From Candidatus Omnitrophota bacterium (GTDB lineage: Bacteria; Omnitrophota; Gorgyraeia; Aquiviventales; Aquiviventaceae), in NCBI GenBank assembly GCA_016198905.1, contig JACQHR010000032.1, positions 74,390-138,389 of the forward strand: 64,000 bases of DNA. The letters run 5' to 3'. Numbering within the stretch: position 1 is the first letter of the stretch; each line of letters starts with the position of its first letter. Made by a program: the position numbers and the translations under genes. Below the pieces are notes generated by a model. The model saw only the letters and a list, made by a program, of their open reading frames with translations. It made no database searches and was not told the DNA's origin. Of the stretch, positions 3,873 through 27,349 are shown in pieces.

Positions 3873-4145
3873 TCAGCGGCGGGAGGGCCTCAGCGCTTTG
3901 GAGCGACCGGCACGATAGTCGCGTCGCGCCTCGGCAACTTCTTGTGCGAGCTCCTCATCCGTTTCATCCAGGCGGTCTTCCAGGTCGCTCATGAGCTGCT
4001 CGTACAGTTCCATCGACAGCAGCGCGGCGACTGCGCGTCCGCTCTTTGTGACAAAACACGGCACATGTTCTTTATGCAGCGACTTCAGCACACTCGAAAA
4101 GTGGCTGCGCACATCACTCGCAGGCAGAATTTTGATCGTCATCAC
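3873..4145 (-). CDS. Phd/YefM-family antitoxin
   Basis: 90 aa. MMTIKILPASDVRSHFSSVLKSL..EHVPCFVTKSGRAVAALLSMELYEQL is a Phd/YefM N-domain. AGGAGGTGAG RBS lies upstream on the minus strand. Confidence 0.8.
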   Translation of the reverse strand: MMTIKILPASDVRSHFSSVLKSLHKEHVPCFVTKSGRAVAALLSMELYEQLMSDLEDRLDETDEELAQEVAEARRDYRAGRSKALRPSRR

Positions 4146-4156
4146 GTCTCACCTCC

Positions 4157-4186
4157 TGTACAGAATATAGCACATGATACTGTGCA
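4157..4186 (-). promoter_or_regulatory. Possible operator/promoter palindrome of the Phd-RelE operon
   Basis: TGTACAG-N16-CTGTGCA imperfect inverted repeat in an AT-rich stretch just upstream of the antitoxin RBS. Confidence 0.3.
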
Positions 4187-4369
4187 ATTAAATGGCCTAT
4201 TTCTGAGGGACGCACGGCTGATTCATTGGGTGGTGACGCGCGACTCACGTATCCCGGAATCGTTTCGATCCCTCGACTCGCACCACCCCGCCTCGGCGGG
4301 GTGGGCTCGCTCGGGATTCCGCCCCACGGGCGAAGAGAAAGGGACCACGGGGTCTGCCCGTGGGGCTCC

Positions 4370-6987: not shown

Positions 6988-7953
6988 ATGAAGCATTCGG
7001 CGATGCCCCAGGTGAGCGTCATCATCCCCGCCTATCGCTGCGGCCGGTATCTTGGTGCGGCGCTTGCGTCCGTGTTCGCCCAAACGTATCAGACACTTGA
7101 CGTGATCGTGGTCGATGGCTCACCGCAGGAGCACGAGGAGATCTTGAAGCCGTATGCAGATCGCATCCGGCGCATCGTCCGCGAGCCGAAGGGCGTGTCG
7201 GCGGCGCGCAACGTGGGGATTCGGGAAGCGCGGGGCGAGTTCATCGCGTTCCTCGACGGTGATGATACCTGGTTACCGCAGAAGCTCGAGCGGCAGATGG
7301 CGATCTTCGAGCGCTGGCCGGATATCGCCATCGTCTTTACACGCATTGAAGACATCGATGCGCAGGGATGCGCCAAACCGGCGGCGCGCGCCGTTCCTCA
7401 AGGGCCGCATCCGTTCGGCGACTGGATCACCGAGTGCGCAACACACGATCCATGCGTCAGCGTCGGGTCAATCCACCGGACGCTTTTGAAGAACAACTAC
7501 ATCCCGACGTCTTCCGTGCTTGCGCGCCGCGACGCGCTCATCGATGCGGGCCTATTCAACGAGCAGATTCCCGTGTGCGAAGACTACGACGTGTGGCTGC
7601 GCGTGACACGGCGGCATCCGGTGGCGTATCTCAACGACGTGACCGCGCAGTACCGCGTGCGGGAAGATGGGCTCTCCGGCTCAGAGGCGGTGCGCGTCTT
7701 CCGCTGGAAGGAATGGAATGCCCGCGTGCTCGAGGCGCAGTTGGGGACCGTCCCCAATGCTCTGAAACCGATGGTGACCGAAAAGCTCGTCACGCGCTAT
7801 CGGGATGCCGGCTGGTATTGCCTGCGGCACGGACAGATTCGGCAGGCCCGGCAGCTCTTCGGCCTGTCGCTGCGGTATCGGTGGCATCAGCCGAACGCGT
7901 TAGCGGGCTTTGTCGCCTCAACATTGATCCCATCGAAGGTGAACGGTTCATGA
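6988..7953 (+). CDS. Glycosyltransferase family 2
   Basis: VSVIIPAYRC, VVDGSPQEH, AFLDGDD. ATG lies 1 nt after the preceding stop. Confidence 0.9.
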   Translation: MKHSAMPQVSVIIPAYRCGRYLGAALASVFAQTYQTLDVIVVDGSPQEHEEILKPYADRIRRIVREPKGVSAARNVGIREARGEFIAFLDGDDTWLPQKLERQMAIFERWPDIAIVFTRIEDIDAQGCAKPAARAVPQGPHPFGDWITECATHDPCVSVGSIHRTLLKNNYIPTSSVLARRDALIDAGLFNEQIPVCEDYDVWLRVTRRHPVAYLNDVTAQYRVREDGLSGSEAVRVFRWKEWNARVLEAQLGTVPNALKPMVTEKLVTRYRDAGWYCLRHGQIRQARQLFGLSLRYRWHQPNALAGFVASTLIPSKVNGS

Positions 7954-8933
7954 GCGAGCCGATCGTGAGCGTCGTCATCGCCACGCGCAACCGGGCCGCG
8001 ATGCTTAAAGAGGCCATCGCCAGCGTCGGCGCGCAGACGTATCAGGATTGGGAGCTCATCGTGGTGGATGACGGCTCGACCGATCAGACGAAGCGGGTCG
8101 CGCAGCAAGCGGCGAAGGACGATCCGCGCGTCCACTATCTTCGGCAGCCGGCCAGAGGCGGCGTGTCGAAAGCGCGCAATGCCGGCATCCACGCGGCGCG
8201 CGGGCGCTACATTGCGTTTCTCGATGACGATGACCAATTCGTTGCGGAGAAGCTCGCGACTCAAGTGGTGCACCTCGACCGTTCGCCCGAGGTGGGCTTC
8301 GTCTACGCGCAGAGCGAATGGGTGGATCGCCGCGGGACTTCGTTGGGAGTTCAGCCGACGGCGCCAGTGACTGATCTCAAGGGGCTGGTGGAGCACTGCG
8401 CGATCCCCCTGCAAACCGTCATGTGTCGTCGGGAACTGATCGAGCGGGTGGGCGGCTTCGATGAGCGGCTGTCGATCGGCGAAGACTACGACTTGTGGCT
8501 GCGGCTGGCGCGCATCACCCGGTTTGAGTTCGTCGCGCGTCCGCTGGTGCGCTACGGGGTGCATGGCGCCAATACGTGCAACGACAGCATCCGGCTCTAC
8601 GAGCAGCGGGCGATCATCCTGGCGCGCGTGCCGCTCGACCGTGCGCGGGGAATCACGTGGTGGTTCAAGCGCCGGCGCCTGGCGATCAACGCGTATCGGC
8701 TGGCGAGGCTGCACCACGAGGCGCGCGCTTTCGCGCAGGCGTCGGCGCATTTTGCCCGCGCGGTCGTCTACGACCCGATGGTCGGCCTGGCCATGGCCGA
8801 GCCGCGCCCTCGGGGGCTGGCGCGCCTGTGGGTGTCGCTGAAACCCTATCTGGCGATCGTGCTGCTCCTGATCGGGGTCAGTCCCCAAGCACGAAAAGTA
8901 GCGAGATCACCCGATTGGGGTCTGACCCCATGA
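7950..8933 (+). CDS. Glycosyltransferase family 2
   Basis: VSVVIATRNR, VVDDGSTDQT, AFLDDDD. ATGA start/stop overlap with the preceding gene. The track ORF's long N-terminal extension (from 7368) overlaps the previous GT2 out of frame. Confidence 0.9.
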   Translation: MSEPIVSVVIATRNRAAMLKEAIASVGAQTYQDWELIVVDDGSTDQTKRVAQQAAKDDPRVHYLRQPARGGVSKARNAGIHAARGRYIAFLDDDDQFVAEKLATQVVHLDRSPEVGFVYAQSEWVDRRGTSLGVQPTAPVTDLKGLVEHCAIPLQTVMCRRELIERVGGFDERLSIGEDYDLWLRLARITRFEFVARPLVRYGVHGANTCNDSIRLYEQRAIILARVPLDRARGITWWFKRRRLAINAYRLARLHHEARAFAQASAHFARAVVYDPMVGLAMAEPRPRGLARLWVSLKPYLAIVLLLIGVSPQARKVARSPDWGLTP

Positions 8934-11464
8934 GGATTGTGATTGTGGCACCAGAGGTGTTTCCGGTTCCACCGATCCGAGGCGGGGCGGTGGAGACCGT
9001 CATCGAGGAAATCTCCGCGCAGTTCCGTGACCACAAGGTAACCATTCTCGGCATTGCCGACGCGTCACTGCCGGTGCAAGAGACGAAGGAGCATCGGACA
9101 TATCGCCGTTGGAAGCGCACGGTCATTGATCGACTCTTGCTCTCGACGTGGAAGCTGCCGTTCAAACAGAGCAACTCGCCGTGGTACTACTGGCCCTACC
9201 AGCATTGGATCGCCAGGCAGGTGCAACGGCTGCGTCCCGACGTCGTGTGGGTGCACAGCCGCATCCAATTTGCGCCGGCGATTCGCCGCGCCGCCCCTCA
9301 CGCGCGGATGATCGTCAGCGTCCATCAACTGAGCACGCTGCGCGATGAGCGCGTCTGGCAGCAAGCGCGCGTCGCGTGTTGTGATGTGATCGCCGGTGTC
9401 AGCCAATTCATGATCGAGGCCATCGCTGCGCGGTATCCATGGACGCAACCCAAGACGCACGTGCTCTCAAACGGCGTTGACGTGACAGCCTATCAGCCGT
9501 GGTGGGCGCAGTCGGCCAGGCGCGAGCGGATGCGCCGCGAGCAGGGCTGGGGTGACGCGCCGGTGATCTTGTATGCCGGGCGGCTCGTCGAGCAAAAGGG
9601 CGTGCATGTGCTCGCCGATGCTTTCAAACAACTGGTAAGGGGTGAGGGGCGGGAGACAGGGGGCGCGGGATCCAACACGAAACCAATGCTGGTCATTGCC
9701 GGCGGCCACACGTACTCCGATGGGACAGAAACCGACTATATCAGGCAGTTGAAGCGCACGCTTGAGCCGCTGGGATCGCAGGTCGTCTGGCTGGGGTATC
9801 AACCGTCGAGCGCGCTGGTGAGCCTGTACGCGGCCAGCGACGTCGTCGTCGTCCCATCAATCAATCCGGAAGCGTTTTCCATGGTCACGGTTGAAGCGAT
9901 GGCCTCGGGTCTGCCGGTCGTTGCCTTCGCGCACGGCGGCCCAGCGGAGATCATTCGCCACGGCATCGATGGGTTCTTGGTGCCGGTCTCCCGCGGCGCG
10001 GAGGGTCTGGCCGAGGCGCTGCAAGCGTGCGTCAGCAACACCACCCTGCGGGAAGCCATCGGCCGCGAGGCCAGACGGACGGTAGAGGAGCGCTTTACGT
10101 GGCAGCGTGTGGCAGAGAGCTTCCTCAAATTGACTCAGGGACAAGGGACAGGGGACAGGGGGCGAGGGAATGCCCTTCCTACGCCCCGCGCCCCGCGCCC
10201 CGCGCCCCAGACACGCGCCGTCCCTATTCTTATTGCTGAGTCAGGATCAGGCTACGGAGGCAGCGCGAAATACCTCAGCGAGCTGGTGTCGCTGCTGGAT
10301 CGGCGACGCTTCCACGCGCAGGTGGTGGCGGCTGAAGAGGGGCCGTTCATTCGCAAGGTCAAAGAGCAGGGAGTGCCAGTAGCACTGAGGCCAAGTTGGA
10401 GATTCGCTTGGGGGCAGGGGGCGGGAGACGAGGGGCGGGGGAAGGGCCAGCACACAGCACTCAGCACGAACGTGAAACATGAAACGCGAAACGTGAAACG
10501 AACGTCGCATGTCCGGTTCGCGCTGGTTGCTGCTACACAGCTTTTGATCATGGTTCCAGCAATTGCCCTCTGGTTGAAGTGGCGGAGGATCCGGCTGGTG
10601 CATCTGAATAACGAGATCCTCTCGCACGTGCCGCTGGCGCTCGGAGCGAAACTCGCCGGCTGCCGCGTGGTGTGCCACCTGCACGGCTGGCGTCCGTTCA
10701 CGAGGCTGGAGCGCGCTGTGGCCGGTGTCGTTGATGAGTTCGTCTGCATTTCGGAGGCTGGCGCGCGGTACTTCGAATCGCAACTGCCGCATCGCCGGGT
10801 GGCCGCGATTCCCAACGGTATTCTGCTCAATGGTCAGTTGGACGGCCTTGACGTGAAACGAGCGCAGGTCCGTCGGCAGTTGGGGATCCAGCCCCATGAC
10901 GCGGTCATCGCCATCATCGGGCGCTTGGTGCCGTGGAAAGGCCAGGCAGTGTTCTTGAAGGCGTTGGCGGATGTCAGCCAGCGACACCCGGACGTGGTCG
11001 GCCTCATCGTGGGGCACGATGCCTCGCCAGGGCAGAGCTATCTGACACAGTTACAGTCGACTGCGCGTGAGCACGGCCTCGCTGAGCGTGGGCGCGTGCA
11101 CTTTGTCCCGTGGCTCGAGGACGTGTGGGGCATTTATGCCGCGGCGGACATCATCGTGCACGCTTCGACGCAGCCGGAGCCGTTCGGACTCGTGCTCATT
11201 GAAGCGATGGCGGCGGGCAAGCTCGTGATTGCCACGCGATCCGGTGGAGTCGTCGATATCGTCACGGATGGCCGGACAGGACTGCTGGTTGAGCCGGGCG
11301 ATCCGGATGGGCTGGCGCGCGCCATCACGCAGGTGGTGACTGATCCTTCGCGCGCCGCTGCGCTGGCTGAGGCCGGCCGGCAGCGCGCGCGAGACGTGTT
11401 CACCATGGAGCGCAACGCGCAGGCAGTCGCGCAGGTCTATCAGCGGCTGATGGTGTGCCGATGA
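8930..11464 (+). CDS. Double GT4 glycosyltransferase (two complete GT-B modules joined through element E3)
   Basis: Module 1: MRIVIVAPEVFPVPPIRGGAVE...VVPSINPEAFSMVTVEAMASGLPVVAF. Module 2: ILIAESGSGYGGSAKY...ASTQPEPFGLVLIEAMAAGKLVIATRSGG. ATGA overlap at 8930. Contains E2, E3 and E4 in frame. Confidence 0.85.
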   Translation: MRIVIVAPEVFPVPPIRGGAVETVIEEISAQFRDHKVTILGIADASLPVQETKEHRTYRRWKRTVIDRLLLSTWKLPFKQSNSPWYYWPYQHWIARQVQRLRPDVVWVHSRIQFAPAIRRAAPHARMIVSVHQLSTLRDERVWQQARVACCDVIAGVSQFMIEAIAARYPWTQPKTHVLSNGVDVTAYQPWWAQSARRERMRREQGWGDAPVILYAGRLVEQKGVHVLADAFKQLVRGEGRETGGAGSNTKPMLVIAGGHTYSDGTETDYIRQLKRTLEPLGSQVVWLGYQPSSALVSLYAASDVVVVPSINPEAFSMVTVEAMASGLPVVAFAHGGPAEIIRHGIDGFLVPVSRGAEGLAEALQACVSNTTLREAIGREARRTVEERFTWQRVAESFLKLTQGQGTGDRGRGNALPTPRAPRPAPQTRAVPILIAESGSGYGGSAKYLSELVSLLDRRRFHAQVVAAEEGPFIRKVKEQGVPVALRPSWRFAWGQGAGDEGRGKGQHTALSTNVKHETRNVKRTSHVRFALVAATQLLIMVPAIALWLKWRRIRLVHLNNEILSHVPLALGAKLAGCRVVCHLHGWRPFTRLERAVAGVVDEFVCISEAGARYFESQLPHRRVAAIPNGILLNGQLDGLDVKRAQVRRQLGIQPHDAVIAIIGRLVPWKGQAVFLKALADVSQRHPDVVGLIVGHDASPGQSYLTQLQSTAREHGLAERGRVHFVPWLEDVWGIYAAADIIVHASTQPEPFGLVLIEAMAAGKLVIATRSGGVVDIVTDGRTGLLVEPGDPDGLARAITQVVTDPSRAAALAEAGRQRARDVFTMERNAQAVAQVYQRLMVCR
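9637..9669 (+). repeat. E2: solo G-rich arm inside GT4 module 1
   Basis: AAGGGGTGAGGGGCGGGAGACAGGGGGCGCGGGA matches the left-arm consensus and is translated in frame as RGEGRETGGAG. No C-rich partner follows. Confidence 0.8.
10136..10208 (+). repeat. E3: G-arm/C-arm palindromic element fusing two GT4 cistrons
   Basis: Left CAGGGACAAGGGACAGGGGACAGGGGGCGAGGG, loop AATGCCCTTCCTA, right CGCCCCG x3 + CGCCCC. Translated as GQGTGDRGRGNALPTPRAPRPAP with no stop. Confidence 0.85.
10410..10504 (+). repeat. E4: chimeric three-block heptamer element inside GT4 module 2
   Basis: G-arm GGGGGCAGGGGGCGGGAGACGAGGGGCGGGGGAAGGG, then CAGCACA CAGCACT CAGCACG, then AACGTGA AACATGA AACGCGA AACGTGA AACGAAC (the E1-type GTGAAAC arm). 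In frame as GQGAGDEGRGKGQHTALSTNVKHETRNVKRT. Confidence 0.85.
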
Positions 11465-12957
11465 GCGTCGTCAACCAAACCGCAGCCCGCGCAGGCGCAC
11501 GCGCCATACCCCCGCTGCACACCGTGGTCGACCGCCGCATCTGGACGTTTGTCGCGCTCATCGGATTCCTCGGCTGGCTCGTCATGAAGGAAATCACGCT
11601 GCCCTCCGGTCTCATGGCGGCTTGTGCGGGGCTGGGATTGCTCGGGCTGTTCATGGTCAGCGTCCAGCGGCCGGAGCTGTCGCTGTACGTGCTCGTGGCA
11701 TACCTGCCGTTCAGCCGGCTCCTCGTCGGAGATTTCGGCACCGAAGCGTACGCCTTCAACCTCACGAACATCCTGACGCTGTGGGTCCTTAGCGCCTATG
11801 TGCTGCGTTGCATGTCGCAAGGCCGGCAGCCCTTCCAATCCGCCCCGATGAGTCGCCTCGTCCTGGCGTTCTGCGCGCTGAGCGGATTCTCGCTGCTGCA
11901 GGGAGGCTTTGCGTACGGCTCCTGGTACTTCTGGCATTACCTCACTCCGCTGAAGCAGTGGCTGACGCCGATCTTCTTTTACTTTCTGGCGCTCTGGGTG
12001 GTGCGGGATCGGAAAGTTCTCAAGACGGTCGTGGTGCTCATGATGGTCGCCGTCACGGTGGTAGCGCTCATGGCGATCCGGGACTATCTGAACAACTCGG
12101 GCAGCAGCCTCGAGAAATCCCGGGTCGGCGGGATCGCCGAGCAGCCCAACACGCTGGGGGCGTTCTTCGTGTACTACATGTTCTTGTTCGCCGGCTTCTT
12201 CCTGACCTATCGCAAGAAGTTCAAGGTGTGGGGGCTGCTCGTTCCCTTTCTGCTGTGTTTCCGCGGCATCATGGTGACATTTTCCCGCGGGGCCTATTTC
12301 GGATTCGCCGCCGGCGGCCTCGGAGCGTGTTGGCACCGCAATAAGGCGCTGTTTGTGGTCGCCGCCGCGCTGTTATGGTTTGCCGTCATGAATCCCTGGA
12401 TGCTGCCGAAGGGGATTCGGTATCGGATGGGGCAAACCGTCGTCAGCCACGGCAGCGACAACGCACCGGGCGACGCGCCGATCGAGGATACCTTGGAAGC
12501 CAGCGCCGGAAACCGCGTGCGCATTTGGCGGGCGACCATCGAGATGATCAAGGACCATCCGTGGTGGGGGGTGGGCTACGGGGCGTTTCCCGCCTACATC
12601 GGGGTGTACACCGGCGGGCACTTCGAGGCGGTCGATGCCCATAACACGTATTTGCTCCTTGCCGCCGAGTTGGGGATCCCAATACTGGTCGTGTTCTGCG
12701 TGGTGATCCTCGTGGCGTGGTATCACACCAGGCGACTCTACCTGGGGACCCACGACTTCGCTATGAAGGCCATCACCCTAGGTTTCCTCGCCGGGCTGGA
12801 AGGGCTCATTGTGGTGAACATGTTCGGCTCGCGGATGGATGACCAGGCGGTCAGCAGCTACTTTTGGATCTTGTGCGGCCTCATCATGCGCGGCGTGTTG
12901 ATCGAGCGGGAAGAGATGTTGGGGGCATGGGGCGCGAGACGTGGGGCGAGGGCATAG
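11461..12957 (+). CDS. O-antigen ligase / Wzy-like polytopic membrane protein (paralog 1)
   Basis: About 10 or more hydrophobic segments. Central GIMVTFSRGAYFGFA and periplasmic-loop ...HNTYLLLAAELGI (Wzy_C-like). ATGA overlap with the upstream gene. The C-terminal tail LGAWGARRGARA is encoded by the E5 left arm. Confidence 0.8.
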   Translation: MSVVNQTAARAGARAIPPLHTVVDRRIWTFVALIGFLGWLVMKEITLPSGLMAACAGLGLLGLFMVSVQRPELSLYVLVAYLPFSRLLVGDFGTEAYAFNLTNILTLWVLSAYVLRCMSQGRQPFQSAPMSRLVLAFCALSGFSLLQGGFAYGSWYFWHYLTPLKQWLTPIFFYFLALWVVRDRKVLKTVVVLMMVAVTVVALMAIRDYLNNSGSSLEKSRVGGIAEQPNTLGAFFVYYMFLFAGFFLTYRKKFKVWGLLVPFLLCFRGIMVTFSRGAYFGFAAGGLGACWHRNKALFVVAAALLWFAVMNPWMLPKGIRYRMGQTVVSHGSDNAPGDAPIEDTLEASAGNRVRIWRATIEMIKDHPWWGVGYGAFPAYIGVYTGGHFEAVDAHNTYLLLAAELGIPILVVFCVVILVAWYHTRRLYLGTHDFAMKAITLGFLAGLEGLIVVNMFGSRMDDQAVSSYFWILCGLIMRGVLIEREEMLGAWGARRGARA

Positions 12958-12997
12958 TCATATGCCAACCATACCCCCACCCCCCGCCCCCCGCCCC
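12919..12997 (+). repeat. E5: palindromic element with upstream stop and downstream start codon in its loop
   Basis: Left TTGGGGGCATGGGGCGCGAGACGTGGGGCGAGGG, loop CATAGTCATATGCCAACCATA (TAG 12955-57, ATG 12962), right CCCCCACCCCCCGCCCCCCGCCCC. Confidence 0.85.
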
Positions 12998-14344
12998 ATA
13001 CTTGGTTGTATCTTGAGTCAATTCCCGCGATACGATGAGGCGTTCATTCTGCGCGAGCTTGTCGCGTTGTCGCAGGACTCGCCGCGGCTCGTGATCTTCT
13101 CGCTGCGTCCGTGCCGCGATCGCGTGATCCACGAGCAGGCGAAAGCCCTGCAGCCGCAGACAGTCTACGCGCCCTTCGTGTGGTCATGGCAGGTCTGGCG
13201 CAGCCACGCGCATGTCCTTCAGCACAATCTGAGAGGATATCTTCGCGCGCTTGGATGGATCATCAGCCGGCATTGGCGGCATCCGGTGATTCTGGTGAAG
13301 ACGCTGGCATTTTTCCCAAAGACCGTGCACTTCGCGAGGCTGGCCCAACAGCGGGGCGTCACGCATGTGCATGCGTTTTGGGCGACGTACCCGGCGGCGG
13401 CGGCGATGATCATGCGTGAGCTGACCGGCATCCCATTTAGCATGTCCGGCCACGCGCATGATATTCACACGATCAATCCGACGCTGACCGAGAAGATGCA
13501 GCATGCGCGCTTTGTCGTGACCTGCACGCAGGCGAATCGTGACTATTTGTTATCGTTAGTCAATAGTCATGGGGCAAGGGGCGGGAGACAGGGGGCAGGG
13601 ACAACCAAAACTATTGTGGAAGGTTTTTCCACGCCCCCCGTCCCCCGCCCCCCGTCCCATGTTATGGTGAGCTACCACGGCGTCGATCTTTCCCGCTTCG
13701 CCGCGCGGCCGAAGGATCACGGGCCGGTGTGCCGGATCCTCGCGGTGGGCAGCCTGTTGCCGTGCAAAGGGTATGAGACGCTGATTGAGGGCTGCACGCG
13801 GCTGCGTGAGCGCGGCGCGGCGTTTCACGTGACCATCGCCGGCGGCGGGCCGCTCGAACGCGCGCTGCGCCAGCGGATCGCGAAGCATGCGCTTACGCAG
13901 CAGGTGACGATGACGGGCTTTGTCAGCCAGGAAACGGTCGCAGCGCTCTATCAGCAAGCGCACCTCGTGATCCTGCCCTTGGTGTCCAAGATCCATTGGG
14001 GCATCCCGAACGTCCTGATCGAAGCGCTGGCTACGAAGACGCCGGTCATCTGCTGCGATCTGCCGTCGATGCGCGAGCTGGTGGTGCACGGCGAAAGCGG
14101 CTGGATCATCCCTGAGAACGACCCCAACGCGTTAGCGACTTCAATCGTGACGCTCTGGAAAGACGCCGCGTTGCGGCAGCGGATCGCCGACGCAGGGTAT
14201 CAGCGCGTGGTCGAGCGGTTTTCGCTGGAGGAAACTGGACGAAAGCTACGAGAGATCTTTAGTCAGGGGCAGGGGGCGGGAGACAGGGGGCAGGTGCAGA
14301 CCGATTTTCCCGCGCCCCGCGCCCCGCGCCCCAAAGTTCCTTAA
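12962..14344 (+). CDS. Glycosyltransferase family 4
   Basis: GT-B C-domain: ...ILPLVSKIHWGIPNVLIEALATKTPVICCDLPSMRELV. Start ATG lies in the E5 loop (alternative GTG 12941). Contains E6 in frame, and E7 forms its C-terminal tail. Confidence 0.8.
   Translation: MPTIPPPPAPRPILGCILSQFPRYDEAFILRELVALSQDSPRLVIFSLRPCRDRVIHEQAKALQPQTVYAPFVWSWQVWRSHAHVLQHNLRGYLRALGWIISRHWRHPVILVKTLAFFPKTVHFARLAQQRGVTHVHAFWATYPAAAAMIMRELTGIPFSMSGHAHDIHTINPTLTEKMQHARFVVTCTQANRDYLLSLVNSHGARGGRQGAGTTKTIVEGFSTPPVPRPPSHVMVSYHGVDLSRFAARPKDHGPVCRILAVGSLLPCKGYETLIEGCTRLRERGAAFHVTIAGGGPLERALRQRIAKHALTQQVTMTGFVSQETVAALYQQAHLVILPLVSKIHWGIPNVLIEALATKTPVICCDLPSMRELVVHGESGWIIPENDPNALATSIVTLWKDAALRQRIADAGYQRVVERFSLEETGRKLREIFSQGQGAGDRGQVQTDFPAPRAPRPKVP
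13568..13661 (+). repeat. E6: palindromic element in frame inside GT4
   Basis: Left CATGGGGCAAGGGGCGGGAGACAGGGGGCAGGG, 30-nt loop, right ACGCCCCCCGTCCCCCGCCCCCCGTCCCATG. Translated as HGARGGRQGAGTTKTIVEGFSTPPVPRPPSH. Confidence 0.85.
14264..14332 (+). repeat. E7: palindromic element forming the C-terminal tail of GT4
   Basis: Left CAGGGGCAGGGGGCGGGAGACAGGGGGCAGG, loop TGCAGACCGATTTTCC, right CGCGCCCCGCGCCCCGCGCCCC. Translated as GQGAGDRGQVQTDFPAPRAPRP, followed by the TAATG junction at 14342-14346. Confidence 0.85.
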
Positions 14345-15204
14345 TGGCCATTCTGCGCACAGTCCTCAGCGATATCACCTATCATGCGAGGCGATTGACA
14401 CCTGGCGATGGAGAAGGATTGCGCATCCTGATGTACCATCGCGTCACCGATGCGCATCCCGGGAATCGGCTGTGCGTGCCGGTGGCGCGGTTTGCGGATC
14501 AGATGCGGTGGCTGGCGGAGCAGGGGTACCGCACAATCTCATTCGCTGAGGCGGTGGAGTTAGTGAGGGGGCAGGGGGCAGGGGGCGGGAGACGGGGGAA
14601 TAGCCGACAAGCAGAATCTGCGGCATTCCCTCGCCCCGCGCCCCGCGCCCCGCGCCCCAAACTGATTGTCCTGACATTTGATGACGGCTTCGAGGATAAT
14701 TTTCTCTACGCCTATCGCGCGCTGGCGCAGTACGGCTTCACCGGCTGCTTCTTCGTGCCAAGTGCCTTTATCGCGTCCGGACAAACCGGGCATGAGGCGG
14801 TCGATCAACCGATGAGCTGGGCGCAATTGAGTGAGCTCGCACGGGAAGGCCACGAAGTAGGAGCGCATTCGATCAGCCACGCGAAGCTCACACACATTGA
14901 TCCGGTGCAGATGCGCGAGGAAGTGCGAGGATCGAAAGAAGCGATCGAGCAAGGACTGCAGCAGCCCGTGAGATTCTTCTGTTACCCGTCGGGTGACTAT
15001 AATGCGGCCGTGAAACAGGCGGTGCGCGACAGCGGCTACGACGGGGCGTGCACCGTGGAGCCGGGCGCGAACCGTTCCGGGGCTGATCCCTTTGCGTTGA
15101 CACGCACGGAGATCAGCGCGTTTGATTCGCTGTGGGATTTTGAGAAGAAGATCGCGGGCGCGTTTGATTGGATGCATCGCGTCGTCCAATGGACGAAACG
15201 ATGA
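14344..15204 (+). CDS. Polysaccharide deacetylase (CE4/NodB-type), paralog 1, with in-frame E8 insertion
   Basis: LTFDDGFEDN, GAHSISH and YPSGDYN motifs. TAATG 1-nt overlap with the upstream gene. Confidence 0.85.
   Translation: MAILRTVLSDITYHARRLTPGDGEGLRILMYHRVTDAHPGNRLCVPVARFADQMRWLAEQGYRTISFAEAVELVRGQGAGGGRRGNSRQAESAAFPRPAPRAPRPKLIVLTFDDGFEDNFLYAYRALAQYGFTGCFFVPSAFIASGQTGHEAVDQPMSWAQLSELAREGHEVGAHSISHAKLTHIDPVQMREEVRGSKEAIEQGLQQPVRFFCYPSGDYNAAVKQAVRDSGYDGACTVEPGANRSGADPFALTRTEISAFDSLWDFEKKIAGAFDWMHRVVQWTKR
14565..14658 (+). repeat. E8: palindromic element in frame inside the deacetylase
   Basis: Left GAGGGGGCAGGGGGCAGGGGGCGGGAGACGGGGG, loop AATAGCCGACAAGCAGAATCTGCGGCATT, right CCCTCGCCCCGCGCCCCGCGCCCCGCGCCCC. 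Translated as GQGAGGGRRGNSRQAESAAFPRPAPRAPRP. Confidence 0.9.
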
Positions 15205-16466
15205 TCAGACATCAGACCTCAGACATCAGACCACAGTCGGACTCAAGACCCAAGACCCAAGACCCAACAGGTGCATTTTCAGCCCCGAGTCTTGAGTCCC
15301 GAGTCTTGAGTCCCGAGTCTCGGGTCCCAGTGAAGGTCATATTCATCATTTGGTCGCTTGGATTAGGCGGCGCAGAACAGGTTGTGATCCGGTTAGCAGC
15401 CGGGCTTGATCGTCGCCGATTCGCGCCGATCATTTGCTGCATGAACGAGCCCGGGCCGTTTGCCACGCAAGCGATCAGCCGCGGCATCGAGGTGATTGCG
15501 CTGCATAAGCGCGGCGCGATCGATCTGGGCATGCTGATCAGGCTCACGCGCGTGATGCGGCAGCGTCGGCCCGGCATCGTGCACACGCATCTGTGGGGCG
15601 CCAGCTTCTGGGGGCGTCTCGCGGCGCGTCTGGCGCGCGTCCCGGTAGTCATCGTCCATGAGCACGGCATGCAGCCCTATCGCGGGGCCTTCCATTTTTT
15701 CTGCGATCGATGGTTAGCGCGGGTCACGTCGCGCATCCTGTTTGCCTCGCAGCACGTCCTGCAGATCTACCGGGCAAAGACGGCCGTCGCGGAATCCAAG
15801 TGCATGGTGATTCCGAATGGTGTCGCGGTGTTACGGCTGCCGGATCGAATCGCGGCTAGGCGCGCGCGCGGATGGTCGCCGGACGATCAAGTGATCCTCA
15901 GCGTCGGGCGGCTCTCGCCGGAAAAAGGCTATGAGGATTTGCTGAAGGCCTTCGCGCTCATCGCTTCCCGCGCGCCGCACGCGCGGCTGGTGCTCGTGGG
16001 AGATGGCGCGCAACGCGCGGCGCTTCAGACGCTGCAGGCGCAGTCAGGGCTCAATGGCCGCGTGACGTTTGCGGGCCGGCAAGAGGATGTCACGGGATGG
16101 CTGGCCGCGGCGGATCTCTACGTGCAGCCCTCGCATCGAGAAGGGCTGCCGCTGGCGGTGCTGGAGGCGATGGCCGCCGGCGTGCCGGTGGTGGCCACCG
16201 ACGTCGGCGATCTGCGCTACGTCATCACCGAGGGACGCACCGGCTACCTCGTGCCGGCCCGGCAGCCGGACACGCTGGCTGCGCGATTGGTCGACGTCCT
16301 GGAACATCCCGAGCAACAGCCGCGCATCGCCGAGGCCGCGCGAGCGCTCGTGCGCACGCGCTTCTCCGACGAACAGATGATCCGCGCCATTGAGCGCGTG
16401 TATGAGGACGAGCTGTCGTGTTGGGGCAAGGGGCAGGAGACGGGGGGCGGGGGAGGGAACCGCTGA
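15201..16466 (+). CDS. Glycosyltransferase family 4
   Basis: VKVIFIIWSLGLGGAEQVVIRLAAGL... and QPSHREGLPLAVLEAMAAGVPVVATDVGD. ATGA overlap at 15201. The first ~43 codons are E9 heptamer repeats, so the true start could be later (e.g. GTG 15331). Confidence 0.8.
   Translation: MIRHQTSDIRPQSDSRPKTQDPTGAFSAPSLESRVLSPESRVPVKVIFIIWSLGLGGAEQVVIRLAAGLDRRRFAPIICCMNEPGPFATQAISRGIEVIALHKRGAIDLGMLIRLTRVMRQRRPGIVHTHLWGASFWGRLAARLARVPVVIVHEHGMQPYRGAFHFFCDRWLARVTSRILFASQHVLQIYRAKTAVAESKCMVIPNGVAVLRLPDRIAARRARGWSPDDQVILSVGRLSPEKGYEDLLKAFALIASRAPHARLVLVGDGAQRAALQTLQAQSGLNGRVTFAGRQEDVTGWLAAADLYVQPSHREGLPLAVLEAMAAGVPVVATDVGDLRYVITEGRTGYLVPARQPDTLAARLVDVLEHPEQQPRIAEAARALVRTRFSDEQMIRAIERVYEDELSCWGKGQETGGGGGNR
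15205..15328 (+). repeat. E9: variant heptamer element (different unit sequences)
   Basis: TCAGACA TCAGACC TCAGACA TCAGACC; then ACTCAAG ACCCAAG ACCCAAG ACCC; loop GGTGCATTTTCAG; then GAGTCTT GAGTCCC GAGTCTT GAGTCCC GAGTCTC GGGTCCC. GGACTCAAGAC is complementary to GTCTTGAGTCC. Confidence 0.8.
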
Positions 16467-16495
16467 ATGCGGAACGCGGAGTGCGGAATCGAGGA
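16422..16495 (+). repeat. E10: G-rich arm followed by a TGCGGAA heptamer block (no C-arm)
   Basis: TGGGGCAAGGGGCAGGAGACGGGGGGCGGGGGAGGG ... TGCGGAA CGCGGAG TGCGGAA TCGAGGA. The GT4 stop TGA 16464-66 lies between the two blocks. Confidence 0.8.
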
Positions 16496-16540
16496 AGCAA
16501 TTGAGACCTAACGCGAAGCGAACGTCACGTTGGGGCGGCG

Positions 16541-18025
16541 ATGAGGAGTGACGCGGTCTTGCCGGCAGCGATGGTGAGGCGCCTGCTGCCCGAGGTGGAT
16601 GAGCGGGCGTGGATGTTCGTGCTCGCGATCGGCGCCTTCGCCGTGTTGGGGCTCAAAGAGATGCCGTTATCGGCACCCCTGGTCTTGGGTCTCTTCGCTG
16701 CCGGTGTGGTCGGGTTGATTGCGGCCGGCTGGCTGGGACCCGAAGCACCGCTGTACGCGCTCATCGCGTACTTGCCCTTCAGCGGGCTGCTGGCCGGTGG
16801 CGCGTCCATCCCGTTTCTCAACCTGACGAATTTGCTTATCCTACTCATCGTGGTCAGCCACATTTGGCGGCAGCGTCGGAATGAGCTGCAGGTCTTGACG
16901 TCTGCGCCGATGAATGCGGTCATCGCGCTTTTCGCCGCGCTGGCGGTTCTGTCGTGGATGCGCGCCGGATGGATGTATGGCGGCTGGTACGCGTCGACGC
17001 ATGCCGTGGCTCTCTTGCGTTGGCTGCGCCCGATGGCGTTCTACTTCGTGGCGCTGTGGGCCGTGCGGGATGCGCGCGCACTAAAGACCGTGCTTGCGCT
17101 CATCGCGGTGGCGGTGACGGTCGTCGCGCTGATGGCGCTGTGGGAGTATCTCGATCGCGCCGGCAGCACCATCGAGCGCTCGCGCGTGCAGGGAATCGCC
17201 GGCGAAGCCAACCGCATGGGGGCGTTCTTCGTGACGTACATGTTCCTGTTCCTTGGCTATTTCTTCGTGACACCGCTGCGTCGCTACGGGTGGCTGATGC
17301 TCGTGCCGTTTCTCTTGTGCGTGCGCGGCATCATGGTGACCTTCTCGCGCGGGGCGCATGTGGCGTTCGCTGCGGGGGTGCTCGTCGCTTGTTGGATGCG
17401 CAGCAAGTGGCTCTTCGTGGTTGCGGCCGCCGCCGCGGCATTCATCATCACGCATCCGGCCCTGCTGCCGGGAGGATTTCGCACCCGCATCGAGCAGACC
17501 ATTCGTCCTGGTCAGCGACTCGACCTGGACGCCGGCACCTCGCAGGAGCTCTCGCGGCAATTGGAGCCCAGCGTCGGGCGACGGGTTGAAGCATGGAACG
17601 GCGGCTTGGCGATGGTGCGCGCGCATCCCTGGGTTGGCGTCGGGTTCGGAGGATTCCGGCGGTTCATTCCCCACTACACGCAGGGCCGAGTGAGCTCCAT
17701 GGCGGCGCACAACACGTACCTGTGGCTGGCGTCGGAGATGGGCATCCCCACGCTGCTGGTGTTTCTGCTGTTTCTCGACCTGCTGGCGTACCACACGGTG
17801 TGGCTGTATCGGCACAGCCAGGATGTCTGGCTGCGGGCTCTTGGCCTTGGCGTGTTGGCCGGCGCCGCGGCGCTGTCTGTGGCCAACGGTTTCAGCGAGT
17901 GCCTCGATTCCTCCGAGGAGGTCGTGGGTTATTTCTGGATCCTCTGCGCGCTCGTCATGAGAGGCGTCCTGCTTGAAAAACAACAGGCTGGGGCAAGGGG
18001 CGTGAGACAGGGGGCGGGGGAATAG
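16541..18025 (+). CDS. O-antigen ligase / Wzy-like polytopic membrane protein (paralog 2)
   Basis: Collinear with 11461..12957 (e.g. GIMVTFSRGAHVAFAAG, AHNTYLWLASEMGIP). The tail GARGVRQGAGE is encoded by the E11 left arm. Confidence 0.8.
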   Translation: MRSDAVLPAAMVRRLLPEVDERAWMFVLAIGAFAVLGLKEMPLSAPLVLGLFAAGVVGLIAAGWLGPEAPLYALIAYLPFSGLLAGGASIPFLNLTNLLILLIVVSHIWRQRRNELQVLTSAPMNAVIALFAALAVLSWMRAGWMYGGWYASTHAVALLRWLRPMAFYFVALWAVRDARALKTVLALIAVAVTVVALMALWEYLDRAGSTIERSRVQGIAGEANRMGAFFVTYMFLFLGYFFVTPLRRYGWLMLVPFLLCVRGIMVTFSRGAHVAFAAGVLVACWMRSKWLFVVAAAAAAFIITHPALLPGGFRTRIEQTIRPGQRLDLDAGTSQELSRQLEPSVGRRVEAWNGGLAMVRAHPWVGVGFGGFRRFIPHYTQGRVSSMAAHNTYLWLASEMGIPTLLVFLLFLDLLAYHTVWLYRHSQDVWLRALGLGVLAGAAALSVANGFSECLDSSEEVVGYFWILCALVMRGVLLEKQQAGARGVRQGAGE

Positions 18026-18437
18026 CAATGCCTATGACGTCTGCAGCGATCACAACCTTCAAAGACCTTCGCGTCTGGCAGGAAGGCATCCAGTTGGTCA
18101 AGGAGATCTATGCCCTCTGCGTCAAATTGCCGAAGGAAGAACTCTACGGCTTAGCGAGTCAGATGAAGCGCGCGGCGGTGTCGGTTCCATCCAACGTAGC
18201 AGAAGGCCATGCTCGAAAACACCGCGCCGAGTACAGACAGTACGTGTATATTGCGATCGGCTCGCTTGCGGAACTCGAGACGCACGTGCTCATTGCTAAG
18301 GAGTTGAACTTGTCTAATGGTGATGAGCTGACCCCGGTCCTTACACGCATTGACCGTTTGCGAGGGATGTTGCTGACGCTCGGGAGACGACTCGGATGAC
18401 GCCGTCCCCTCGCCCCTCGCCCCTCGCCCCTCGCCCC
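17989..18437 (+). repeat. E11: G-arm/C-arm palindromic cassette carrying a second four-helix-bundle gene
   Basis: Left TGGGGCAAGGGGCGTGAGACAGGGGGCGGGGG (17989-18020). Right (CCCCTCG)x4 + CCCCA (18406-18437). About 25 of 32 positions are complementary by hand alignment. Confidence 0.9.
18028..18399 (+). CDS. Four-helix-bundle protein (23S rRNA intervening-sequence protein family), second, divergent copy
   Basis: FKDLRVWQEGIQLVKEIY...QMKRAAVSVPSNVAEGHARKH..EYRQYVYIAIGSLAELETH. Starts 2 nt after the ligase TAG and has an ATGA overlap with the next GT4. Confidence 0.85.
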   Translation: MPMTSAAITTFKDLRVWQEGIQLVKEIYALCVKLPKEELYGLASQMKRAAVSVPSNVAEGHARKHRAEYRQYVYIAIGSLAELETHVLIAKELNLSNGDELTPVLTRIDRLRGMLLTLGRRLG

Positions 18438-20717
18438 ATTCGCGTGATGTTCGTGATCTGGTCGCTCGGCCTCGGCGGAGCGGAGCAGGCGGTGATCCGG
18501 CTGGCCGCGGGCCTTCGGCGCGAAGGGTTCGAGCCGTTGATCTGCTGTCTCAACGAGCCGGGTCCCTTCGCTGTGCAAGCGCAGGCCGCCGGCGTGCCCG
18601 TCGTGGCGCTGCACAAACGGTGGCGCTATGACGCGCGCGTGCTCTGGCGCTTGATGCGGTTGATGCGGCAGTGGCATCCGGACGTCGTGCACACGCATCT
18701 GTGGGGCGGCAACGCGTGGGGGCGGACGGCGGCCTGGCTGGTGGGTGTTCCGGTCATCGTCACGAGCGAGCGGAATCTGGATCCTTGGAAACGCTGGTAC
18801 TATTTTGTGATCGACCGCGTGCTCGCAGCGCGGACCACGACGTTGCTGGCCGTCTCCGAGTCCGTGCGGGCGTTCTACGAGCAGCACGGGGTCGGCCGCG
18901 GCCGCTGGCAAGTCTGCTACAACGGCGTCGATATCGCCGACGTAACACCCCGGCAGCGAGGAGCCGTGTTCGCGCAACTGGGCGCGCAGCATGGCGAGCC
19001 GGTCGTCGGCTTCATCGGACGCTTGGCTTCGGCAAAGGCTCCGGATGTGTTCGTCGAGGCGGTCGCACAGGCGCGCCGAACACTCCCTTCGCTGAAAGCG
19101 CTCATCGTCGGCGACGGGCCGCTGCGCAGCGAGGTTGAAGCCTTGGCGCGTCGATTGGGATTGGATGGGCATCTCGTGGTGACCGGCGTGCGCGAGGATA
19201 TCCCGGAGCTGCTGGCGGGGATGGACGCGCTGATGGTGTCGTCCGAGCGCGAGGGGCTCTCCATGGCGATGTTGGAGGCCATGGCGGCAGGAGTCCCGGT
19301 TATCGCGACTCGAGTAGGAGGCACTCCTGAACTCATCGAGCCGGGGATGACCGGACTGCTTGCGCCTCCAGGCGCGCCCGACGCATTGGCGCGCCAGTTG
19401 GTGGCACTCCTGACCAATCCCGCGCACGCGCAGGCCATTCGCGATGCGGCCCGCGCGCGAGTGGCGAAGGATTTTTCCATGCAGCGCGTGGTGGCGACGC
19501 ATGCAGCAGTGTACCGCCGCGGCCTCAAGCAGGCCAACCGTGCAGGACTCAGTGATCGCGTCAAAGAGGCGGCGGCATCGCTTCCCATCGCTCACCGCGC
19601 TCGCCTCCGCGTCATGCATGTCATCGACGATCTCGGACTCGGAGGCGCGCAGCGGCAGCTCGTGGAGCTCGTCAAGGCGTTCCCGCGGGATCGCTATGAG
19701 CTGCACGTTGTGAGTCTCTCGACGACGAAGACGGACTACGCGGAGGCGCTCCACGCAGCGGAGATTCGCCTGACGCAAATCCCGCAGGCCGGCAAATGGG
19801 ATGGCCGTTGTTTTTCGACGCTCTCCACGCTGATCAAAACCGAGAAGCCTTCCATCGTCCACACGTGGCTCTTTACCGCCGACCTCTATGGCCGCATGGC
19901 GGCGTGGGTGGCGCATGTGCCGGTCATCATCAGCGCGGTGCGCAGTGTGGAGCCGGATAAGCCCGCGCACTACGTCGTGGTGGATCGCGTCCTGCGCAAC
20001 ATCACCAGTGCCTTCACCGTCAATGCGCGCGCGATTGGCGAGGTGCTGACGGCGCGCGAGCATGTGCCGACGGAGAAGATTCATACGATCTATAACGGGC
20101 TCGATCTGCGCGCCCTGGATCCATCCCGCGTGAATGGAGCGATTCGGCGCGCCATCGCCGTCGGCGCCGACGTCCCCCTGATCGGGATCGTCGGGCGTCT
20201 AGCGCCGGTGAAGGATCACGCCACGTTTCTGCGCGCGGCAGTGCGCGTGCATCGTGAAGCGCCACAGGCGCGGTTTCTCATCGTCGGCAACGGTTTGCTT
20301 CACGGCGAGCTCGAGCAGTTGAGCCAATCATTGGGCCTGAGCGATGTCGTTCGCTTTCTCGAGAGCCAATCCAACGTAGCCGAGGTGTTCGCCGCGCTCG
20401 ATGTCGTCGTCGTGTCCTCCCTCTATGAAGGCTGCTGCAACGTGATCCTCGAAGCGATGGCGATGGGCAAGCCCGTGATCGCCACAGCCGTCGGGGGCAA
20501 TCCTGAGCTCATCAGCGACGGGCAAACCGGGCTGCTCGTGCCCGTGGGCGATGATGCGAAGCTGGCCGAGGCGATGGTGAGCCTGCTGCGTGATCCGCAG
20601 CGCGCGCAGGCGATGGGCCGCTCGGGGCGAGCGCGCGTGGAGTGCGACTTCGCCATCGAGCGGATGGTCGTCGCAACCGATCGCGTCTATCAGAAACTGT
20701 TGAGTCGCGCCCCATGA
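18396..20717 (+). CDS. Double GT4 glycosyltransferase (natural tandem fusion, no element at the joint)
   Basis: Module 1: IRVMFVIWSLGLGGAEQAVIRLAAGL...SSEREGLSMAMLEAMAAGVPVIATRVGG. Module 2: LRVMHVIDDLGLGGAQRQL...SSLYEGCCNVILEAMAMGKPVIATAVGG. The N-terminal MTPSPRPSPLAPRP is the E11 right arm (alternative ATG 18447). Confidence 0.85.
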   Translation: MTPSPRPSPLAPRPIRVMFVIWSLGLGGAEQAVIRLAAGLRREGFEPLICCLNEPGPFAVQAQAAGVPVVALHKRWRYDARVLWRLMRLMRQWHPDVVHTHLWGGNAWGRTAAWLVGVPVIVTSERNLDPWKRWYYFVIDRVLAARTTTLLAVSESVRAFYEQHGVGRGRWQVCYNGVDIADVTPRQRGAVFAQLGAQHGEPVVGFIGRLASAKAPDVFVEAVAQARRTLPSLKALIVGDGPLRSEVEALARRLGLDGHLVVTGVREDIPELLAGMDALMVSSEREGLSMAMLEAMAAGVPVIATRVGGTPELIEPGMTGLLAPPGAPDALARQLVALLTNPAHAQAIRDAARARVAKDFSMQRVVATHAAVYRRGLKQANRAGLSDRVKEAAASLPIAHRARLRVMHVIDDLGLGGAQRQLVELVKAFPRDRYELHVVSLSTTKTDYAEALHAAEIRLTQIPQAGKWDGRCFSTLSTLIKTEKPSIVHTWLFTADLYGRMAAWVAHVPVIISAVRSVEPDKPAHYVVVDRVLRNITSAFTVNARAIGEVLTAREHVPTEKIHTIYNGLDLRALDPSRVNGAIRRAIAVGADVPLIGIVGRLAPVKDHATFLRAAVRVHREAPQARFLIVGNGLLHGELEQLSQSLGLSDVVRFLESQSNVAEVFAALDVVVVSSLYEGCCNVILEAMAMGKPVIATAVGGNPELISDGQTGLLVPVGDDAKLAEAMVSLLRDPQRAQAMGRSGRARVECDFAIERMVVATDRVYQKLLSRAP

Positions 20718-26383: not shown

Positions 26384-26456
26384 GACGCGGGGCAGGAAAA
26401 ACCAAATTTGGTATTGAGGATTTTCCCACGCCCCGTGCCCCCGTCTCCCGCCCCTT
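26366..26456 (+). repeat. E12: palindromic element at the giant-protein / deacetylase junction
   Basis: Left AAGGGGCAAGGGGCATGAGACGCGGGGCAGG. The loop has a GGAAAA...TTTTCC clamp and an internal CCAAATTTGG palindrome. Right CACGCCCCGTGCCCCCGTCTCCCGCCCCTT. Confidence 0.85.
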
Positions 26457-27265: not shown

Positions 27266-27341
27266 AGGGAGCGTGGGGCGTGGGGCGTGGGGCGTGGGAA
27301 AACCGCTTTTCCCTCGCCCCCCATCTCCTGTCCCTTGCCCC
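27266..27341 (+). repeat. E13: palindromic element at the deacetylase / GT2 junction
   Basis: Left AGGGA + (GCGTGGG)x4. Inner clamp GGGAAAA-CCGC-TTTTCCC (27296-27313). Right CTCGCCCCCCATCTCCTGTCCCTTGCCCC, which is close to the reverse complement of the E10-type G-arm. Confidence 0.85.
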
Positions 27342-27349
27342 AATCTGTG

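Follow-up and report, generated by a model that had tools for sequence, protein, structure and literature searches.

E8, a GC-rich hairpin of 94 bases at positions 14565–14658 of the 64-kb stretch of Omnitrophota DNA analyzed in this work (the window), is probably a translated, tolerated copy of a multi-copy family of GC-rich hairpin repeats that was inserted in the gene for a CE4 polysaccharide deacetylase. The window is part of a metagenome-assembled genome (MAG) with a GC content of ∼61%. The members of the family are ∼70–95 nt long, with a G-arm of 4–5 heptads (GGGGCAR GGGGCRR GAGACRN GGGGCRN GGGAA), a short variable loop, and a C-arm of ∼4 heptads (NNGCCCC). Because E8 carries the family-specific order of heptad variants, it would have originated by copy-and-paste of a family member and not by local slippage; the insertion would have added 24 residues, with a high content of Gly, Arg, Ala, and Pro, to a loop that normally has six, and it would have been tolerated through arms that lack stop codons and a net added length that is a multiple of three. 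Elements of this kind probably shrink later by internal deletion. A sequence-only reading of the window had already drawn attention to E8 as an in-frame palindromic element. That reading needs to be extended in three respects: insertions recur at the site, making it a hot spot; the repeats of the family are made up of heptads; and their architecture is common to the arms that bracket genes of the 23S_rRNA_IVP family (IVP genes).

The deacetylase and its in-frame insert

The host gene (14344–15204, forward strand) encodes a 286-residue polysaccharide de-N-acetylase of the PplD/PgaB/IcaB type (Pfam PF01522, 7.9e-27) that matches, with 100% identity, a protein in NCBI from a MAG of Candidatus Omnitrophica. 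The hallmarks of the CE4 family are present, that is, the PF01522 domain, the TFDDG and H-x3-H motifs, and the CE4 fold, and the invariant residues D113, D114, H175, and H179 are all kept; the best Foldseek matches of the predicted structure in the PDB are 6dq3 (PplD), 3vus (PgaB), and 4wcj (IcaB). The open reading frame (ORF) runs through E8 in frame, as the sequence-only reading had stated: residues 76–105 (nt 14569–14658) are GQGAGGGRRGNSRQAESAAFPRPAPRAPRP, and these are followed by KLIVLTFDDG. Also as stated there, a second deacetylase in the window (paralogue 2; 26477–27265, forward strand, 262 residues) lacks the element; it reads QQGSGTLPERTVVLTFDDG, and its loop is GSGTLPE.

In the AlphaFold2 model of the host protein (mean predicted local distance difference test score (pLDDT) 93; predicted template modeling score 0.89), residues 75–105 form a coil between the helix 67–74 and the strand 106–113, the strand that bears TFDDG; the pLDDT is below 50–70 over the insert and <50 at residues 81–87. 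A low-confidence coil directly before the TFDDG strand is what the earlier reading had anticipated. Because a barrel-type fold such as that of CE4 has its catalytic residues at the C-terminal strand ends, the insert should lie at the non-catalytic, N-terminal end of its strand and, thus, away from the active site. If the insert is translated, a peptide such as GNSRQAESAAFPR is expected.

In a pairwise DNA alignment with the nearest orthologue (P0002, locus L001), exactly 72 nt (24 codons) of the window gene have no counterpart at the E8 site; the orthologous protein reads VRGRAPRPKLIV, and its DNA reads GTGAGGGGG joined directly to CGCGCCCCTCGCCCCAAA. The stretch that is missing from L001 corresponds to positions 14572–14643 (forward strand), with boundaries that are ambiguous by ∼1 nt owing to repeats. 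When its 24 codons are removed, the window protein reads VRGRAPRPK, which is identical to the L001 loop. The usual loop at this site in the family has six residues. The alignment with orthologues that had been proposed as a check came out in favor of an insertion at exactly the E8 site. The proposal that the 30 residues are exactly the element has to be corrected: the net insertion relative to L001 is 24 codons, and RAPRP belongs to the loop of the orthologue too. The window and L001 genes have 51 synonymous and 16 non-synonymous codon differences (dS 0.45, dN/dS 0.089), that is, the host gene is under purifying selection. A search of metagenomes for population alleles with the left junction of E8 (GTGGAGTTAGTGAGGGGGC) gave three matches, all unrelated chance matches.

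Sequence and fold of the hairpin

E8 consists of a G-arm (14565–14600, forward strand) of five heptads, GAGGGGG CAGGGGG CAGGGGG CGGGAGA CGGGGGA, followed by a single A; a 25-nt loop (14601–14625), TAGCCGACAAGCAGAATCTGCGGCA; and a C-arm (14626–14658) that begins with TTCCC and continues as TCGCCCC GCGCCCC GCGCCCC GCGCCCC. The G-arm pairs with the C-arm in the fold. Using Tandem Repeats Finder, both arms are recognized as period-7 arrays (14566–14586, 3.0 copies, 100% matches; 14628–14658, 4.4 copies, 95% matches); tandem 7-nt units are also found in other copies of the family, where, as in E8, the arrays are short (3–4.6 units).

As RNA, E8 folds as a single hairpin with a minimum free energy of −74.1 kcal/mol; dinucleotide-preserving shuffles give −50.0 ± 4.1 kcal/mol (z = −5.9), and none of 200 shuffles is as good. 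Folded as DNA, the z-score is −3.6. The stem is composed of 5-bp GGGGC/GCCCC blocks that are separated by mismatched dinucleotides, and the GAGAC heptad lies opposite a plain GCCCC heptad; thus, the palindrome that the sequence-only reading described is real in that the hairpin is far more stable than shuffled sequences, but its arms are not strict complements. The G-arm contains five G-tracts with spacers of 1–4 nt and, as read from its sequence, fits the canonical quadruplex motif. A search of window positions 8–28 kb against Rfam (E ≤ 1) gave no real family, only sub-threshold matches to hairpin models of microRNA precursors.

The composition of the arms has a consequence for translation. 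The G-arm is devoid of T and its reverse complement of A, and the C-arm cannot form TAA, TAG, or TGA; because neither arm can form a stop codon, only the loop can hold one, in any of the six frames. Arms that are free of stop codons in any frame would provide a simple tolerance rule that explains the survival of such elements inside genes. The sequence-only reading had noted that the frame in use avoids a TAG in the loop; this out-of-frame TAG exists (14601–14603), but it is weak evidence since two of the three forward frames contain no stop codon within E8.

Copies in the window and in other genomes

E8 is not unique. The sequence GGGGCAGGGGGC occurs 12 times in the window with at most one mismatch (0.65 expected), and a 20-mer from the C-arm of E8 occurs eight times with at most two mismatches (0.00 expected). 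Approximately 11 copies of the G/C type are located between 9.6 and 27.4 kb, all in one cluster of genes for polysaccharide synthesis (glycosyltransferases, Wzy-like proteins, and deacetylases), and they have the conserved core GGGGCA.GGGGC..GAGAC..GGGGC. Five copies in the window lie inside coding sequence; all five keep the reading frame and are flanked on either side by conserved protein. If removal from the RNA left the length free, the probability that all five would be in frame is ∼0.004; therefore, the E8 insert is most likely translated, not removed from the RNA.

The exact 26-nt core was found in 74 further stretches in a collection of species-representative genomes, mostly MAGs from Omnitrophota and Planctomycetales; single matches were also obtained in Nitrospirae, Acidobacteria, Nostoc, and others, of which some resemble plain heptad runs. 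We examined 88 copies of the core (those in the window and in loci L001–L078). Across these, the core is extended by RNGGGAA. In 46 of the 88, a C-arm of at least three C-tracts follows after a median gap of 14 nt; because GTCTC occurs in only three of these 46 C-arms, the asymmetry of the arms that is seen in E8 is a trait of the family.

We found no conserved flank or end tag: the information is <0.25 bit at each of 16 upstream positions in 87 copies, and GTAG is present in only four. We had considered TTAGT, which is located upstream of some copies, as an end tag and dropped it when the position table for the 87 copies showed no conserved flank; TTAGTGA in L001 was dropped with it as proof of a remnant of the element.

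An open frame with at least 240 nt upstream and at least 300 nt downstream spans 22 of the 88 core copies; a few of these frames are spurious, and ∼18 of the 22 copies lie in recognizable conserved proteins. The hosts include RluD-type pseudouridine synthases (L070, L074); dihydroorotate dehydrogenase (PyrD), in which copies with opposite orientations directly follow LSCPN in two different genomes (L046, L033); Lnt, in which it directly precedes ICFED (L043); CarA (L063); TsaD (L045); PurL (L030); a UbiD-like protein (L031); and a UvrD/AddA-like helicase (L027). The G-arm is translated in all three frames (GQGAGD, GARGxRQGAG, and GRGxETGG) and on the opposite strand (PLSPAPCP), and identical cores are also found at non-coding positions.

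Two further observations concern the fetched DNA. The core lies ∼100–250 nt from the end of the locus or contig in L024, L034, L039, L048, L049, L068, and L069; in cases in which such an end is also the end of a contig (e.g., L024, L048, and L068), the family may break short-read assemblies. Also, a second small palindromic repeat, CCCCGGCCCGCC and GCCGGGGCGGGC separated by 10–16 nt, is present in seven copies in 0.67 Mb, nested in heptad arms or other repeats (L002, 10321–10360; L030, ∼4998; L074, ∼6261 and 6629, reverse strand; L034; L009; and L032); the copy in L002 sits inside the insert in the deacetylase loop.

The deacetylase loop and gene junctions as recurrent sites

In an alignment of 66 homologues of the deacetylase, 13 carry at least 11 extra residues in the E8-site loop, and a neighbor-joining tree places the insert-bearing proteins in at least nine separate clades, each beside relatives with the canonical six-residue loop. 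Only three of the 66 homologues have an insert at one other internal site, after window residues 147–150; the extra residues at this second site number 22 in P0017, 21 in P0065, and 10 in P0027.

Three insert-bearing orthologues were read as DNA, and all three contain heptad palindromes: in L003, GAGACAA/GAGACAG heptads face GTCTCCC; in L004, GTGACAA/GCGACAA heptads face CTGTCAC; and in L002, the insert is a composite with the nested second mini-palindrome. A fourth, more distant orthologue (P0091, 35% identical; L080, 3220–3400) carries a different hairpin that resembles repetitive extragenic palindromes (REPs), GTCATTCCCGC...GCGGGAATC, translated as VIPARFKRESI...; in the same locus, a GIY-YIG gene (3998–4348) is located at the junction downstream of the deacetylase. 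The sequence-only reading had named homologous inserts lacking palindromy in orthologues as the finding that would speak for an ordinary loop; we observed the opposite, that is, non-homologous inserts that are heptad palindromes.

Two loops, GRAPRP in L001 and EGRTTRAPQS in L079, differ from the consensus GGAAELPS and, judged by their sequences, look like collapsed remnants; together with the recurrent inserts, such remnant-like loops argue that both gains and internal deletions occur. The recurrence at the loop may reflect targeting, with hairpins, G-runs, or elements already in place as the targets, or only that inserts are structurally tolerated there.

The same pattern extends to the surrounding polysaccharide cluster (all elements on the forward strand unless stated). 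A 962-codon open frame (8576–11464) is a fusion of two glycosyltransferase modules that is conserved in L002 and L003; codons 1 to ∼115 (8576–8920) overlap the ORF at 7368–8933 and are probably not part of the gene. This double glycosyltransferase carries three in-frame elements: a G-arm-only copy in the first module (9634–9665), with a heptad-type insert at the same site in L003; a family copy in the linker between the two modules (10139–10210); and, in the second module, a family G-arm followed by CAGCACA and GTGAAAC heptads (10409–10500). A further copy (12921–13001) spans the junction of the ORF at 11455–12957 and the glycosyltransferase gene at 12941–14344. The latter gene contains an in-frame copy in its interdomain linker (13570–13660; both flanks are conserved in L002 and L003) and a copy translated as its C-terminal tail (14265–14333) that ends at the TAATG stop/start overlap with the deacetylase and is shortened in L001. 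At the linker site and the three sites in the double glycosyltransferase, elements are present in the window and L003 and absent from L002.

Where the deacetylase gene meets that of the next glycosyltransferase, the window contains a hairpin composed of other heptads (15205–15330; TCAGACA, GACCCAA, and CCCGAGTCTTGAGT), L001 has a reverse-oriented G/C element (∼880–980), L004 and L084 have IVP cassettes, and L002, L079, and L085 have nothing; as read from these sequences, the junction is one at which element types are exchanged. A family G-arm with GAATGCG-type heptads lies at the end of that glycosyltransferase gene (15168–16466; element at 16422–16500). Two copies flank paralogue 2: one with the core in both arms between a 1913-residue ORF and the paralogue (26368–26453), and one in reverse orientation directly after it (27265–27345, reverse strand), at a junction where L002 has an IVP cassette.

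Relation to IVP genes

A cassette 3.4 kb downstream of E8 (17989–18439, forward strand) consists of a family G-arm (17989–18025), an IVP gene (18028–18399) that encodes a four-helix-bundle protein (PF05635, 1.5e-34), and a C-arm of 4.6 CCCCTCG units (18402–18439); its arms are of the E8 type, and we read it as the element in full length. In a second cassette (1273–1776, forward strand), the IVP gene (1312–1758) is located between 4.4 units of CGTTTCA (1273–1303) and 4.6 units of the inverse, GTGAAAC (1745–1776). Inverted heptad arrays of ∼4 units bracket ∼10 of the 11 IVP genes that we examined in the window and the fetched loci, with each cassette having its own heptad: TTTTGGA in L002 (17020–17500), GTCCATA in L004 (1250–1700), GTAACAC in L017a, CGTGACC in L019, a G/C type in L037 and L071, a GTGACAA type in L084, and weaker arrays in L074; for the IVP gene of L017b, only a downstream array was seen.

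The L071 IVP (reverse strand, 2333–2833; from a ‘Planctomycetales’ MAG), with G/C arms, is 78% identical to the window IVP; the L037 IVP, also with G/C arms, is no closer to the window IVP than are IVPs with other arms, in what is a small sample. In the middle of the L071 protein is an extra segment of ∼45 residues rich in Arg, Pro, and Gly; this segment may represent a nested repeat inside the IVP gene itself. Because only three of the 88 core copies are located within 700 nt of an IVP gene that is detectable with tblastn, most copies are ORF-less, and the link to IVP genes comes from shared architecture, not adjacency.

The IVP family has been described as functionally uncharacterized; its members are homologues of Avd, a protein of diversity-generating retroelements, and are encoded in rRNA intervening sequences (IVSs). 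These sequences occur sporadically, have the shape of a hairpin, and are believed to spread by horizontal transfer (10.1101/2024.02.27.582315; PMC10053308). Given the architecture and sites in common, the best reading of E8 is as an ORF-less miniature of a class of IVS-like hairpin elements. A broader proposal, which we consider possible and offer tentatively, is that heptad-armed hairpins and IVP cassettes constitute one hitherto undescribed mobile-element system: the Avd-like PF05635 protein, encoded by the element, would recognize arrays of ∼4–5 heptads, E8-like miniatures would be non-autonomous derivatives that are placed or exchanged at pre-existing hairpins or G-run sites, and the IVSs of 23S rRNA would be the subset that resides in rRNA. 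If true, this would explain how unrelated elements recur at the same codon across lineages and are swapped between relatives.

Alternative explanations

Several observations weigh against E8 being an inserted, merely tolerated copy of a mobile family. No direct repeat or target-site duplication flanks the 72-nt difference from L001, and in the window and fetched fragments we found no terminal inverted repeat apart from the arms, no conserved end tag, and no transposase, so mobility is argued solely from how many copies there are and how they are distributed. In L001, the short form, GAGGGGG followed by CGCGCCCCTCGCCCC, could be a mini-palindrome that predates insertion instead of a collapsed element, and a G-run is already present at the site in insert-free orthologues (TGGGTGGGGGGTGC), which leaves room for locally seeded growth. 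The persistence of different elements at the same sites in diverged relatives hints that the elements are not purely neutral passengers. The same is suggested by the orientation of copies between co-directional ORFs, in which the G-arm is first on the sense strand in 40 cases and second in 10; this count uses gene direction from the longest ORF, which is crude, and is inseparable from replication-strand bias.

The last two points are most pertinent to the explanation that, in our view, is the strongest rival, although a rather unlikely one: the hairpin is kept for a structural role in the operon mRNA or in the DNA (with a G-quadruplex in the G-arm and an i-motif in the C-arm as possible alternatives to the hairpin), with in-frame translation as a side effect. 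Such a role, which is compatible with E8 being a translated family copy, could possibly be slowing or pausing of ribosomes, provision of a site for RNase processing or stabilization, or modulation of transcription through the polysaccharide cluster. In addition to the orientation bias, the presence of elements at nearly every gene junction of the cluster, the very stable fold (−74 kcal/mol), and the quadruplex motif in the G-arm are in its favor, as is the finding that the same positions in relatives hold different but still complementary arms (GGGGC/GCCCC in the window, GAGAC/GTCTC in L003); also, quadruplex formation has been demonstrated in Xanthomonas and Nostoc for G-rich heptamer repeats that are preferentially of four units and lie between co-directional ORFs (PMC4692102). 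However, many close orthologues have no element at the site, and the nearest one lost, or never had, most of E8; there is no covariation in the dinucleotides that separate the 5-bp blocks; the replication strand or coding constraints may account for the orientation bias; and no Rfam family matches.

It is unlikely that E8 grew in place, that is, that a native palindrome of a G-run and a C-run was expanded by slippage in heptad steps, with template switching to provide the complementary arm, and that nothing was inserted. L001 does have a 12-nt perfect palindrome at the site (GGGGCGCGCCCC), insert-free orthologues have GGGGGG there, tandem heptad arms are prone to slippage, and heptamers are reportedly over-represented among bacterial simple repeats (PMC4692102). 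However, the succession GGGGCAG-GGGGCGG-GAGAC-GG-GGGAA is found in >80 copies at unrelated loci, including in other phyla, and independent slippage would not recreate it; also, 72 nt is not a multiple of seven, and the sequence of the E8 loop is unrelated to the flanks.

A still less probable explanation is that the heptad arrays are contingency repeats, in which a change of ±7 nt shifts the frame and results in phase variation of surface-polysaccharide genes. The 7-nt unit is not a multiple of three, and the concentration of elements in the glycosyltransferase, Wzy, and deacetylase genes of a polysaccharide cluster is the classical setting for such variation; however, the arrays have only 3–4.6 units, every intragenic copy that we examined is in frame, the sole allelic difference seen (72 nt) preserves the frame, and the family is also found in the housekeeping genes for PyrD, CarA, and RluD, in which switching would be lethal or pointless.

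We consider it highly improbable that the hairpin is cut from the transcript (e.g., by RNase III) in the manner of the IVSs of 23S rRNA, so that the protein is made without the insert: the architecture does match, with a long stem and an optional PF05635 ORF in the loop, but cleavage without ligation would destroy the mRNA, and the preservation of frame in five of five copies, the 72-nt multiple of three, and the absence of in-frame stops would all be unnecessary if the hairpin were removed. Finally, a GC content of ∼61% and the naturally G- or C-rich codons for Gly, Ala, and Pro might suggest an ordinary, lineage-specific low-complexity loop with palindromy as a by-product of Gly/Arg/Pro codons, but the fold z-score against dinucleotide-preserving shuffles, the family counts (12 vs 0.65 and 8 vs 0 expected), which already refute it, and the identical cores in non-coding positions, all three frames, and on the opposite strand leave it with a negligible probability.

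Comparison with known systems

As a translated palindromic repeat, E8 is of a known kind; its family appears to be undescribed. Our literature search, from whose coverage most subscription journals were absent, found no description of the E8-type family, of such elements in Omnitrophota, or of heptad arrays that bracket IVP genes.

Heptameric repeats in other bacteria include the short tandemly repeated repetitive (STRR) sequences of cyanobacteria, the GGGAATC type of Xanthomonas and Nostoc (PMC4692102), and the TAACTGA repeats of Beggiatoaceae (PMC4679880). Like the arms of E8, these have a 7-nt unit, typically in ∼4 copies; they are enriched between co-directional ORFs and near gene ends, their sequence and length vary among relatives at conserved positions, and their G-rich versions are prone to form quadruplexes. 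Unlike the arms of E8, the STRR, GGGAATC, and TAACTGA repeats are described as direct arrays with no complementary partner, and they have no link to IVP genes.

REPs of the GTAG/CGTC superfamilies, which are mobilized by RAYTs, also occur inside genes, where they give ‘REP-decorated proteins’ (PMC3733652), and in the form of REPINs (PMC3116915). The likeness is considerable: REPs are short, GC-rich, imperfect palindromes located mostly between co-directional genes near the 3′ ends of ORFs; some of those inside genes encode 20–30 extra residues; REP arrays flank exopolysaccharide genes in Thauera; and inverted copies of the repeat lie on both sides of the gene presumed to be autonomous. However, the E8 family lacks the GTAG or CGTC tag that is conserved at one end of the 20–40-nt REP palindrome, as well as any conserved flank, its arms are tandem heptads, and the gene between its arms encodes a 120-residue PF05635 four-helix bundle instead of a Y1 transposase; no RAYT was seen in the 64-kb window or in the fragments of other genomes. 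Nor does E8 resemble a miniature inverted-repeat transposable element, since it has no target-site duplication relative to L001, no related insertion sequence was seen, and the arms are its sole inverted repeat.

The IVSs of rRNA are similar in that their inverted flanks form a long stem around a short loop or, alternatively, around a PF05635 ORF, and in that ORF-less and ORF-containing forms exist; they are sporadic among close relatives, and unrelated sequences are found at the same site in different lineages. They differ in being located on the tips of rRNA helices, from which they are excised by RNase III without ligation, whereas all of the E8-type copies that we saw are in or between protein-coding genes and, within coding sequence, have to be translated; we found no report of heptad-built IVS stems in the literature examined. 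The bracketing of IVP genes and the sites shared by ORF-less and ORF-bearing elements provide a handle on the function of stand-alone IVP/Avd-like proteins and on the spread of intervening sequences.

The palindromic elements of the AT-rich Rickettsia, to which the sequence-only reading likened E8, are ∼100–150 bp long and encode, in each family, a conserved peptide in one frame (Ogata et al., 2000, 2002, via PMC10969869). The comparison is apt with respect to behavior, with no claim of homology: both are multi-copy palindromes found in frame in many unrelated functional genes, where they give rise to additional translated segments at positions compatible with the fold, and both are also found outside genes. 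The E8-type elements differ in being shorter (70–95 nt), extremely GC-rich, and built of 7-nt units, in being read in all three frames and on both strands, in encoding a peptide that is not conserved, and in sharing their architecture with the arms of IVP genes. Translated palindromic repeats in functional enzymes are not restricted to Rickettsia but are common in Omnitrophota and related bacteria of the Planctomycetes–Verrucomicrobia–Chlamydiae group. In practice, such inserts inflate and distort metagenomic protein families, may break assemblies, and can pass for lineage-specific loops; E8 is of more interest than an ordinary repeat because its family is frequent in housekeeping proteins, occupies the same sites repeatedly, and is tied to IVP genes.

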